Below are positions 39,201 through 53,712 of a DNA stretch of 55,717 bases, one piece after another. Position numbers and translations under genes: made by a program. Source of the DNA: Kofleriaceae bacterium (GTDB lineage: Bacteria > Myxococcota_A > Polyangia > Haliangiales > Haliangiaceae); the NCBI GenBank assembly GCA_046597055.1, contig JBKJLC010000004.1, positions 1-55,717 of the forward strand, read 5' to 3'. Below the pieces are notes generated by a model. That model worked only from the letters and a program-made list of their open reading frames with translations. It did not search any database and was not told the DNA's origin. Numbering within the stretch: the first letter of the stretch is position 1; each line of letters opens with the position of its first letter.

Positions 39201-39302
39201 TGGCCGGGTCCCGGACGGCGCTGGCCGCCGGCCGGACAAGCTGTCCGGTAGCCGGACAACCCGCACGCGCCGACGCGGGGTTGGCGGTGGCATGCGTCGT
39301 GC
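39201..39302 (+). promoter_or_regulatory. recA promoter: three palindromic sites plus sigma54 -24/-12 box
   Basis: TGGCCGGgtcCCGGACG (39201), TGGCCGCcggCCGGACA (39222), TGTCCGGtagCCGGACA (39242), then TGGCATGCGTCGTGC (39288-39302). Confidence 0.75.
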
Positions 39303-39327
39303 GAAGGGGCCCGGCAGGAGGCACGAC

Positions 39328-40359
39328 ATGTCGGCAGACAAGAAGCAAAAGGCGATCGCCGAGGCGATCAAGGTCATCCACAAGCAGTTCGGGTCGGGCT
39401 CGCTGATGCGGCTCGACGGCAGCGAGACCCAGGAGATCGAGGTGATCCCGACCGGGTCGATCGCGCTCGACGTCGCGCTCGGCACCGGCGGGTTGCCGCG
39501 CGGCCGCATCGTCGAGATCTTCGGGCCCGAGTCGTCAGGCAAGACCACGCTCACCCTGCACGCGATCGCCGAGGCTCAGAAGGCCGGCGGCGTGTGCGCG
39601 TTCATCGACGCCGAGCACGCGCTCGACACCGAGTACGCGCGCCGGCTCGGGGTCCAGCTCGACGATCTGCTGGTCTCGCAGCCCGACCACGGCGAGCAGG
39701 CGCTCGAGATCACCGATACCCTGGTCCGCACCGGCGCGATCGACCTGATCGTCGTCGACTCGGTCGCGGCGCTCACGCCCAAGGCCGAGATCGAGGGCGA
39801 GATGGGCGACGCCCACATGGGCCTGCAGGCCCGCCTGATGAGCCAGGCGCTGCGCAAGCTGACCGCGATCATCTCGCGGACCCGGACGACGGTGATCTTC
39901 ATCAACCAGCTCCGCCAGAAGATCGGCGTGGTCTACGGCAACCCCGAGACCACCACCGGCGGCAACGCGCTGAAGTTCTACTGCTCGGTGCGGCTCGACA
40001 TCCGCAAGAAGAAGGTCATCAAGCGCGGCGACGAGTCGATCGGCAGCGAGGTGAAGGTCAAGGTCGTCAAGAACAAGCTGGCGCCGCCGTTCCGCGAGGC
40101 CGAGTTCGAGATCCTCTACGGCGTCGGGGTCAACAAGCTCGGCGAGCTGGTCGACACCGCCGAGAAGCTCGGGCTCGTCGAGAAGTCGGGCACCTGGTAC
40201 TCGTACGAGGGCACCAAGCTGGCCCAGGGCCGCGAGAAGGCGATGGCCCACCTCGACGAGCACCCGGCGCTGGCCGAGCAGCTGCGCCAGGCGCTGGTCA
40301 AGCAGGCCCGCCGGGTCGTCGCCGGTGGCAGCGGCGCCAGCAACGGAGTCGCGGCGTGA
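39328..40359 (+). CDS. recA: Recombinase RecA
   Basis: [54 protein letters not shown]. Confidence 0.99.
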
Positions 40360-40778
40360 TCGCGCGTCGGCCCGACCAGGACGTCGACCACCGCACCACC
40401 GGCGAGATCCCGGCGTTCGTGCACGTGCCGCCGCCGGCGGCGCTGGTCGAGGGCCCGCCCGACCTCGACGACGCGCTCGAGCGCGTGCTGGCGGAGGGCC
40501 TGGCCGTTCAGCTGGTCGCCAACGGCGTCGCCGAGCAGGTGTTCGCCCGGCTCGATGACGAGGACCTCTGGATGTACGAGCGCGAGATCGCCGATCAGAT
40601 CGCGCGCGCCGCCCACACTGACGACGACCTCGACGCGACCGCGGCGGCCGTGCTGGCCGCCGGCCTCATCGATCGCGGGCTCCAGCAGGTCACGGCGCGC
40701 TGGCAGCAGCACCGCGAGCTGCGGCGCAAGTACGAGCGCCGGTGGAACCCGGCGACGCCCGCTCCGGAGGTGGCGTGA
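40356..40778 (+). CDS. Hypothetical protein translationally coupled to recA
   Basis: GTGA overlap with the recA stop; 140 aa with normal codon usage. Confidence 0.75.
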
Positions 40779-41041
40779 TGGCGGCCCGCGATCCGGCGCC
40801 TCGCCTGCGCATCCCGCGCGAGCTGTGGTCGGCCCACGATCTCGGTCAGCCCACGGCGCCGCCCCGTCCGCGCGAGCGGCCGACGCCCTATCGGCGCGGC
40901 CGCGGCCGTGGCGGCTCGCCGGCCAGCGAGGCGGCGGCCGACCCGACCCTGCCGCTCGGGCTGTCCGAGCTGTGGGACCTACGCCGGCTCGGGCTGTTCG
41001 ACGACGACGGCCGCACGCCGCCGGGCGGGTGGGACCAGTAG
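40778..41041 (+). CDS. Small hypothetical protein, third gene of the recA operon
   Basis: TGATG overlap preceded by GGAGG; 87 aa. Confidence 0.6.
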   Translation: MAARDPAPRLRIPRELWSAHDLGQPTAPPRPRERPTPYRRGRGRGGSPASEAAADPTLPLGLSELWDLRRLGLFDDDGRTPPGGWDQ

Positions 41042-51677: not shown

Positions 51678-52047
51678 CCTCGCGTCAGCCCGGAGGCGAT
51701 GGCCCGTCGCGCTGCTGACCGCGCGCAAGTGGGAACGCGCGAAACCAGGCGTCCTCGACCGGGTCGAGGGCGTGCCCTCACCGAGATGTCACCCATGTCC
51801 CCTCTGTGAACTGTTACCTATGTCCTGGTTCAGACCGACGCCGGCACCTCGGCGCTCGGTACTCCGCACTCGGTCTCGGGACCTCGGAAGGCAAGCCGGG
51901 CTCGCGAGCCGCCGGCCGCGTGGCGCTGCACTTTCAGCGGTGCCGATGGGCAGGGTCATGAGGCCTACCGCCTGCCCGCTGCCGCGTGCTGACGCGGTCG
52001 CCGGCCGGAGTCCCGCCGCTCGTCTTGCTGGCGGTCGCGCCCGGGCC

Positions 52048-53598
52048 TCACATCGGGCCCAGCCGCGCGTCGCGGGCATCGAGCAGGGGTTCCTGGTCGA
52101 GGCAGCGGTAGCCGGCGGCCTCGGCCAAGTGGACCTTGTCGATGCCATCGTCGCCGGCGAGGTCGGCGATCGTGCGCGAGACCTTGATGATGCGGTCGAT
52201 CGAGCGCGCGCTCATCGCGCGGCGCACGCGGGCAAGGTCGGTCAGGAAGCCTTCAGCCGCCGCGGTGAGCACGCAGGTGGCGCGGGTGGCGGACGGGCTC
52301 ATCTCGGCGTTGGTGCGCACGCCGAACCGCGCCAGTCGCGCCGCCTGCCGGTCGCGCGCAGCCATCACGCGCGCCCGGACCGCGGCCGATGGCTCGCCCG
52401 GCTCGAGCCGGCGCATGTCGGCGACCGAGACCGGCCGGACGGTGACGTGCAGGTCGATGCGGTCGAGCAGCGGACCGCTCAGCCGGCCGCGGTAGCGCTC
52501 GACCGCGCCGCCCGAGCAGGTGCACTCGCGCACGCGCGATCCGGCCCACCCGCACGGGCACGGGTTGGCCGACGCGACCAGCAGGAAGCTGGCCGGCAGG
52601 CGCACGGTGCCGTGGGCGCGACCGACGACGATCTCGCGGTCCTCGAGCGGCTGGCGCAGGGCCTCGAGCGCGGTGCGCTGGAACTCGGGCAGCTCGTCGA
52701 GGAACAGCACGCCATGGTGGGCGAGCGAGATCTCGCCGGGTCGCGGGATCGATCCGCCCCCGAGCAGGGCCGCGGTCGAGATGGTGTGGTGGGGCGCGCG
52801 AAACGGCCGCTCGCGGACCAGGCCGTCGGCCAGGCCCAGCGCCGAGTACACCTTGGTGACCGCGAGCGCCTCGTCGTGCGGCATGGGCGGCAGGATGGTG
52901 GGGATGCGGCGGGCGAGCATCGACTTGCCGATGCCGGGCGGACCGACCAGCAGCACGTTGTGGCCGCCGGCGACCGCGACCTCGACCGCAGCCCGCGCGA
53001 TCGGCTGGCCCCGCACATCGGACAGGTCGAGGCTCCCGCCGAGCACCTGGTGGTACGGCGGCACCTGCGCCCTCGGCAGCGGCGCACCGCCGGCGAGGGC
53101 GGCGATGACCTCGGCCAGGTGCGCGGGTGCGAGCACCTCGAGGCCATCGACCACGGCGGCCTCGGCCGCCGAGCCGGCGGGCAGGACGATGCCGCGCATG
53201 CCGAGCCGGCGCGCTTCCATGGCGGCGGCCAGCGCCCCCCGCACCTTGCGCAGCGTGCCATCGAGGCCGAGCTCGCCGAGCAACATGAAGCCCTCGAGCG
53301 GGCCCGGCAGGTAGATGCCCTCCGCGAGCAGCACGCCGATCGCGATCGGCAGGTCGAAGCCGGTGCCGGGCTTGGGGATGTCGGCCGGCGCCAGGTTGAC
53401 GGTGATCTTCTTCTGCGGAAGCCGCTGACCGCAGGCCTCGAGCGCGGCGCGGATCCGCACCGCGCCTTCGCGAACCGAAGTCGCGGCCATGCCGACCACG
53501 TGGTAGCCGGGGAGCTGACAGGGCGCGAGGTCGACCTCGACGTCGATCGCCTGCGCCTCGATCCCCTTCAACGTCGATGACATCAGGCGGGCCAGCAC
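52048..53598 (-). CDS. comM: ComM/YifB Mg-chelatase-like AAA+ ATPase
   Basis: ITVNLAPAD, FDLPIA, GELGLDG, GPPGIGKSMLA, PFRAPHHT, PGEISLAHHGVLFLDELPEF, NPCPCG, LSGPLLDRID. Confidence 0.97.
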   Translation of the reverse strand: MLARLMSSTLKGIEAQAIDVEVDLAPCQLPGYHVVGMAATSVREGAVRIRAALEACGQRLPQKKITVNLAPADIPKPGTGFDLPIAIGVLLAEGIYLPGPLEGFMLLGELGLDGTLRKVRGALAAAMEARRLGMRGIVLPAGSAAEAAVVDGLEVLAPAHLAEVIAALAGGAPLPRAQVPPYHQVLGGSLDLSDVRGQPIARAAVEVAVAGGHNVLLVGPPGIGKSMLARRIPTILPPMPHDEALAVTKVYSALGLADGLVRERPFRAPHHTISTAALLGGGSIPRPGEISLAHHGVLFLDELPEFQRTALEALRQPLEDREIVVGRAHGTVRLPASFLLVASANPCPCGWAGSRVRECTCSGGAVERYRGRLSGPLLDRIDLHVTVRPVSVADMRRLEPGEPSAAVRARVMAARDRQAARLARFGVRTNAEMSPSATRATCVLTAAAEGFLTDLARVRRAMSARSIDRIIKVSRTIADLAGDDGIDKVHLAEAAGYRCLDQEPLLDARDARLGPM

Positions 53599-53610
53599 GC
53601 CGGCACCCGG

Positions 53611-53712
53611 AGCACGACGCGTGCCGCGTACAACGCCGCGGGCCCGCGTGGCTCCGTCCGGTTCCCGGACACCCGGGTCCGTGAACGGGACGCGCTGTCC
53701 GGTTCCCGACCG
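53611..53712 (-). promoter_or_regulatory. comM promoter: sigma54 box plus three palindromic sites
   Basis: Minus strand CGGCACGCGTCGTGCT (53611-53626). CGTCCGGttcCCGGACA (53655), GGTCCGTgaaCGGGACG (53676), TGTCCGGttcCCGACCG (53696). Confidence 0.75.

Follow-up and report, generated by a model that had tools for sequence, protein, structure and literature searches.

Tandem palindromes close to sigma-54 promoters have been described in Myxococcus xanthus, where three interrupted palindromes (CACCG-n6-CGGTG) lie 5' of a validated sigma-54 promoter of the PexR regulon, three repeats being sufficient for binding (PMC12754779), and where promoters of the NmpR regulon carry several NtrC-like dyads with an N5 spacer (GCGCA-N5-TGCGC) near the sigma-54 box (PMC11841059). 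Among competence systems, the CRP-S regulons of gamma-proteobacteria include comM, radC, ssb and comE1 (PMC1635313), and both CRP-S/Sxy and Vibrio cholerae QstR (PMC6237807) place comM, radC, ssb and comE/comEA-type genes under joint control. Here we analyse a 55,717-nucleotide stretch (hereafter the window), contig C26 of the 8.38 Mb, 72% GC genome of a Kofleriaceae bacterium (GCA_046597055.1, contig JBKJLC010000004.1; genome G000), in which recA, comM and a VWA surface protein gene are each preceded by three tandem 17-bp palindromes and a sigma-54-type box. A first-pass annotation of this DNA had proposed a sigma-54-dependent competence/recombination regulon, and the gene set, phasing and conservation reported below support that proposal for the uptake and recombination arm: the promoters probably mark a genuine enhancer-type regulon under sigma-54, conserved among relatives and serving, in the likeliest reading, DNA uptake and recombination.

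In layout, three tandem palindromes with a sigma-54 promoter, the window arrays resemble those of PexR, and they share with NmpR the NtrC-like dyad, the N5 spacer and several sites per promoter near the box. The closeness of three palindromes to a sigma-54 promoter, which the first-pass annotation had set apart from classical enhancers, is thus not unusual in myxobacteria (PMC12754779, PMC11841059). The systems nevertheless differ in site, input and targets: PexR has a GAF input and peroxide genes, and NmpR a receiver input and oxygen genes (PMC11841059), whereas here the site is YGTCCG-N5-CGGACR, the candidate activator is of the FHA type and the genes concern DNA uptake and recombination. 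Because the window matrix matches neither the PexR nor the NmpR site, the regulon is neither of these despite the like architecture. Comparison with competence regulons is also mixed. In its genes the regulon functions like that portion of the CRP-S and QstR regulons which covers the cytoplasm and the DNA receptor. While comM, radC, comEA and an SSB-type gene share the promoter, the CRP-S and QstR systems work through CRP/Sxy or a LuxR-type regulator and include dprA, comEC/rec2, comF and pilus genes, none of which has an array here, and the present regulon differs further in including recA and mobile nuclease genes. Since dprA, comEC and comF do not fall under the same site, we do not file the regulon as a CRP-S/QstR-type member.

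We take COG2003 to be RadC. Sigma-54 enrichment of COG2003 is reported in PMC12316311, whose available text makes no mention of 'recA' or 'competence', and rpoN1 has been linked to Ralstonia competence (PMC4371752). We found no published report of the motif, of the regulon or of direct sigma-54 control of recA, comM, radC or comEA; supplements lay outside this search, and those of PMC12316311 may list such promoters.

Promoter architecture

The arrays, boxes and gene identities given by the first-pass annotation all hold. The recA array (39201..39258, no strand; sites 39201-39217, 39222-39238 and 39242-39258) is followed after 30 nt by a sigma-54 -24/-12 box at 39289..39302 (plus strand), with a predicted start at about 39314 and recA itself (PF00154) at 39328..40359 (plus). 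For the VWA gene (45164..46198, plus; PF00092), the array lies at 45039..45096 (no strand; 45039-45055, 45058-45074 and 45080-45096) and the box 40 nt on, at 45137..45150 (plus), with the predicted start at about 45162, 2 nt 5' of the ATG; the protein has a signal peptide, a VWA domain, a MYXO-CTERM anchor and a weak likeness to CglB. On the minus strand, comM (52048..53598; MCM-like helicase family, identified by orthologues and by PF01078/PF13541/PF13335) is preceded by a box at 53612..53625, with a predicted start at about 53600, and, 29 nt from the box, by an array at 53655..53712 (no strand; 53655-53671, 53676-53692 and 53696-53712). Predicted starts were placed about 12 nt after the GC of the box. 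Relative to TGTCCGG-N3-CCGGACA, the sites carry 2, 2 and 0 mismatches at recA, 1, 0 and 2 at the VWA gene, and 1, 4 and 3 at comM, where the middle site is called degenerate because of its four mismatches; it was missed in a search allowing up to 3 mismatches, yet scores 10 bits by matrix. The window holds 16 matches to the motif against a shuffle mean of 6.8, and none of 100 shuffles reached 16.

Among 96 promoters from all fetched loci, the strong site nearest to the GG of the box lies at 29-31 nt in 63, at 39-42 in 18, at 50-53 in 13 and elsewhere in 2, counts that come from related rather than independent loci and from matrices trained on G000 promoters. Site-to-box spacing is helically phased, and the three dyads of an array recur every two helical turns. 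The IHF consensus used here is the generally known one; a word within 3 mismatches of it stands 18 nt 5' of the GG in 34 of 94 promoters, compared with at most 2 at any other offset. In the window this positional signal corresponds to a degenerate word at 39271..39283 (plus) for recA and to one at 53631..53643 (minus) 5' of the comM box. We also searched with a pattern of two sites plus GGCA from which the -12 element had been left out: the -12 GC was present at 31 of 37 matches before regulon genes (recA 7, comM 9, small gene 13, radC 1, RAYT-like 5, Rpn-like 2) and at 6 of 31 others, the genes being assigned mostly by eye. Twelve of 18 promoters have a start codon at 27-28 nt from the GG, which places it 2-3 nt past the predicted start; this suggests near-leaderless mRNA and indirectly favours the predicted starts. 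The boxes fit the GG-N10-GC consensus yTGGCACGrnnnTTGCw (PMC12754779), two or more dyad sites lie upstream in helical phase, and the genome encodes both rpoN and a GAFTGA activator. Judged by these features, the boxes appear to behave like sigma-54 promoters, and the transcription starts are predicted ones.

Genome-wide scan and regulon membership

Across G000, TGTCCGG-N3-CCGGACA occurs in 27 exact and 117 one-mismatch copies, whereas nine other spacers gave 0 exact and 0-6 one-mismatch copies; spacer 4 is raised too (11 exact, 20 one-mismatch), and YGTCCG-N5-CGGACR is the refined core. Of 13 triple arrays above the cut, 12 have a box 29-31, 40 or 51 nt away, and 3 Mb of Markov sequence contained no triple array scoring at least 24. 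A home-made gene caller returned 6,609 genes, 6,419 of which could be tested for a site plus a box; only 17 carried both, one of these being a back-reading of the recA array and one weak. The remainder comprises recA, comM, radC and the VWA gene, a gene for an 84-amino-acid protein with comEA downstream of it, two Uma2 genes, one RAYT gene, the genes for an FHA activator and an LTD-domain surface protein, and five unnamed genes. Two genes missed by the caller, one a further RAYT gene and the other a GIY-YIG gene, carry the promoter as well, and it stands at both RAYT and both Uma2 genes found in the genome. Neither of two HNH-like genes considered as members in G000 has it, though multi-copy members in the relative G016 do. 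The scan suggested in the first-pass annotation thus added radC and the small gene before comEA, and found no array at dprA (two copies), comEC, comF or canonical ssb, all present in G000; for this reason we regard the regulon as a DNA-binding/recombination arm rather than the whole uptake machine.

CTGAAC/GTTCAG words are regarded as LexA-type boxes. Such words occur at lexA and uvrA, and a dnaE2-like gene has CTGAAC-type words; all three lack arrays, and the window recA promoter shows no such word, so that no LexA (SOS) box is shared by lexA, uvrA and this recA. Array-led genes lie directly after uvrA, polA and nrdJ (L004, L006, L010). At C29:32225 (minus; L008 5100-5330), a full array and box point antisense into the 3' end of the nrdJ ribonucleotide reductase gene, and antisense control of nucleotide supply is possible. 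A six-site cluster at C39:44911-45240 (L009 3910-4240) has no box and adjoins DnaA-box-like words; we rejected it as oriC because dnaA and the best DnaA boxes lie on C23.

An acidic tail ending in PF is characteristic of SSB. The small protein 5' of comEA (L003 787-1038) is called SSB-type by its acidic tail alone, in which PF is invariant in 13 of 13 sequences (consensus DLPF). It has 1,125 relatives and no Pfam match; its model shows four strands, with a predicted local distance difference test (pLDDT) score of 73.6, and the best fold match, with an OB or PC4-type fold looked for, is weak (Z 3.1). An Atlas search yielded hypothetical phage proteins and a weak lead to DUF736. Multi-copy HNH-like and Rpn-like genes, so named on weak matches, have the promoter 5' of them in G016 and G183. 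G016 (L156-L162) holds more than 20 near-identical promoter copies; five examples of this type were fetched, and all stand before HNH-like genes.

Conservation among relatives

The first-pass annotation had named conservation in related genomes as a check, and the promoter is kept at recA, comM and VWA orthologues across the Kofleriaceae/Haliangiales order, with control levels outside it. All genus relatives whose contigs extend upstream of recA have a strong site there (12 of 12, a truncated locus having been dropped), and sites occur in 5 of 7 more distant members of the window-type recA clade, into which a Haliangium RecA also falls, compared with 0 of 9 copies of the other recA paralogue. 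The strict composite is found at 16 of 29 orthologous comM loci, most others having degenerate arrays by eye and G195 a box only; at the VWA gene it is found in 9 of 11 full-length matches (the window gene counted) and in 0 of 9 paralogues. The small gene is followed by comEA in 13 of 14 loci, a divergent comM/recA pair shares one common array at L084, and comM lies directly 5' of a recA in G026, G028, G029 and G030. The two-site-plus-GGCA pattern was recovered at 66 loci, mostly in Kofleriaceae, Haliangium and 'Myxococcales' records, and the exact composite in 23 of the 60 genomes of the order, where the controls scored close to zero, whereas a related pattern across the phylum was found in 9 of 201, which is at control level. 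In G029, from another order, the comM-recA promoter (L336) carries variant sites with an N4 spacer, a variant that is raised in G000 as well (61 vs about 20). A kinase divergent from comM was considered as a conserved partner and rejected, being absent from the comM loci of 8 relatives.

The window recA is a second, comM-linked paralogue, the other copy (C222) having no array, and this qualifies the first-pass statement that recA is normally under sigma70/LexA control: M. xanthus likewise has two recA genes, one of which, recA1, lacks a LexA box and shows late induction by UV (PMC7029660, PMC12288472). M. xanthus recA1 differs in being marked, in its published description, with -10/-35 elements and no enhancer.

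A candidate activator

Of 76 sigma-54 activator genes in the genome, only the FHA-AAA-HTH (helix-turn-helix) gene at C15:2138-3529 has an array and box. Its Walker motifs and GAFTGA are intact, and its HTH is unusual, with a conserved recognition helix. This HTH family occurs in 57 of 60 order genomes, nearly always as a single copy, with 3 weak matches in 99 outside genomes, a range that matches that of the motif. On balance the C15 protein is the favoured candidate, somewhat more likely than not to be the regulon's activator. Eight of 10 genus relatives retain its own array (in one it is weak), as does G209, and four g15 genomes have variant sites there; an array on the activator's own promoter would give positive feedback and an on/off switch. 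Another FHA activator, on C270, was rejected as the regulator, since only two weak sites and no box face the gene.

A second promoter-like pair, GCAAC-N16/17-CCGATA, lies 5' of the activator gene across the order (L122-L151). In distant genera only this second conserved promoter is kept, and the gene lies 3' of a moaE-like gene. The orthologue at G016:C37:65848-67163 is split in two frames, perhaps by assembly error; within the window, another sigma-54 activator gene (15639-16138) is apparently split into two matches.

Scattered single sites

GTCCG-N5-CGGAC occurs 401 times in G000, some 20 times the level of the spacer controls: other spacers give 13-28 copies, and N6 gives 61. The 318 sites within genes (79%) fall in all reading frames and compare with 99 +/- 8 in synonymous shuffles, while spacers 2, 4 and 8, used as controls, stay under the counts of their own shuffles; in-frame spacer controls and synonymous shuffles together rule out a codon artefact. 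Compatible peptides are in excess (VR.[SPTA]D, 404 vs 268-354), and in the bin with the lowest GC at third codon positions site density is merely halved. To compare G016 with G000 we used 40 G016 sites, drawn from the first 100 listed with promoter copies left out. In this one genome pair, at the DNA level, sites are not depleted from DNA without a match in the relative (22 of 40 site windows align vs 219 of 380 tiles, p=0.74), and 6 of the 22 aligned intragenic sites are intact in G000, where 9.8% would be expected (p=0.017). Across order genomes, perfect-site counts range from 0 to 96.

Single sites in the window lie at 30175..30191 (perfect, 12 nt 5' of an open reading frame start, no box), 33864..33880 (a motif match within a coding region), 44091..44107 (perfect, at the end of a hydrolase gene and adjoining a REP-like word) and 55511..55527 (3' of a kinase gene, with REP-like repeats close by), none having a strand. 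A REP-like GTG[GC]CTGACAC word has 72 copies in 16 clusters, nearly all intergenic (window 55540-55717; C239, C25, C114), and some of the repeats include the activator site.

Discussion

We consider the arrays likely to be enhancers for a single sigma-54 activator, which would switch on a programme of DNA uptake and recombination made up of recA, comM, radC, comEA together with the small SSB-tailed protein, and some surface proteins. Three activator dimers may load on one DNA face and form an AAA+ hexamer; IHF would bend the spacer between array and box, and the hexamer would then open the sigma-54 complex, often giving a near-leaderless mRNA. The products of the multi-copy nuclease and transposase genes under this promoter (RAYT, Uma2, Rpn-like, HNH-like and GIY-YIG) would appear at the very time at which foreign DNA and RecA occur together.

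Several observations weigh against a regulon for uptake and recombination under this activator. Arrays are missing from dprA, comEC, comF and canonical ssb in G000, the composite occurs at 0 of 23 dprA loci, and fold searches with the small protein gave no match. The activator's own array is absent in G002, G015 and most distant genera. G019, 98% complete, has target promoters and no activator orthologue that we could find; G022 keeps the orthologue, lacks comM and has no motif excess (23 vs control 42); and G028, G029 and G030, from other orders, have the box with at most weak or N4-variant sites at comM and no activator orthologue. The window RecA has Ser and Glu at the positions of Lys23 and Arg33, residues tied to recombination (PMC7029660). 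In all 29 rows the FHA domain is without the Arg that usually comes next to the conserved Gly, on its C-terminal side. That Arg serves phosphothreonine recognition, so a phosphothreonine signal is doubtful.

The main competing explanation is that the same sigma-54 switch drives a LexA-independent response to DNA damage or replication stress instead of DNA uptake. Since recA, radC and comM also serve repair (PMC1635313), M. xanthus recA1 is UV-induced without a LexA box (PMC7029660) and the arrayless genes include dprA, comEC and comF, this explanation has a basis, but we consider it rather improbable: comEA, the periplasmic DNA receptor, belongs to the set at 13 of 14 loci, surface proteins are members too, and lexA, uvrA and the dnaE2-like gene have CTGAAC-type words instead of arrays. 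The scattered sites suggest another reading, in which a nucleoid-type or chromosome-organising protein has hundreds of sites and the arrays repress or assist while a different activator does the work. The predominance of single sites within genes, their excess preservation between G016 and G000 and the boxless C39 cluster would all fit, yet perfect-site counts vary across the order while promoter arrays persist, as in G017, and triple dyads phased to a -24/-12 box fit the PexR design (PMC12754779), which leaves this reading distinctly unlikely.

The first-pass annotation had itself named a scattered, repetitive extragenic palindromic (REP)-type repeat as the refuting case, and part of this came true: single sites are scattered genome-wide, whereas arrays with a box are not, and no REP repeat accounts for them. 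A mobile repeat spread by RAYT transposases, with boxes present by chance, could point to the promoter at both RAYT genes and to the 10 of 401 sites near GTGGCTGACAC-type repeats. Near-identical intergenic copies with shared flanks were not found, however; the sites have 218 different spacers, a single pair of sites out of 50,403 has similar flanks, sites occur in each of the three reading frames, and at orthologous core genes the position is kept across families in fixed helical phase. The scattered sites are not a mobile repeat, and a REP origin of the promoters, already largely refuted, retains only a minimal probability.

Returning to a regulon for DNA uptake and recombination, the scattered sites may reflect decoy titration or a recombination-linked drive. 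Like the DNA uptake sequences of Haemophilus and Neisseria, they exist in hundreds of copies, many in genes and with an excess of encoded peptides (PMC2817400); they differ in being palindromic, sparser (1 per 21 kb), active also as a promoter element and not depleted from unshared DNA. A broader scenario, which we offer tentatively and hold to be doubtful as a whole, is that Kofleriaceae have a bistable, self-amplifying sigma-54 competence switch, whose operator spread to hundreds of coding positions as threshold-setting decoys or as a self-DNA tag favoured in uptake or recombination, and whose promoter was captured separately by unrelated selfish nucleases (RAYT, Uma2, Rpn-like, HNH-like) that would thereby act and spread during transformation.

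Competence regulons described elsewhere are run by CRP/Sxy or QstR, and others by ComK or SigX. The regulon proposed here supplies a site together with a promoter design and an activator candidate for the timing of DNA uptake and recombination in myxobacteria, and it may provide a first regulatory clue for expanded nuclease families without known function. It also poses a new puzzle, that of a transcription-factor site that is strongly enriched, not avoided, inside genes.

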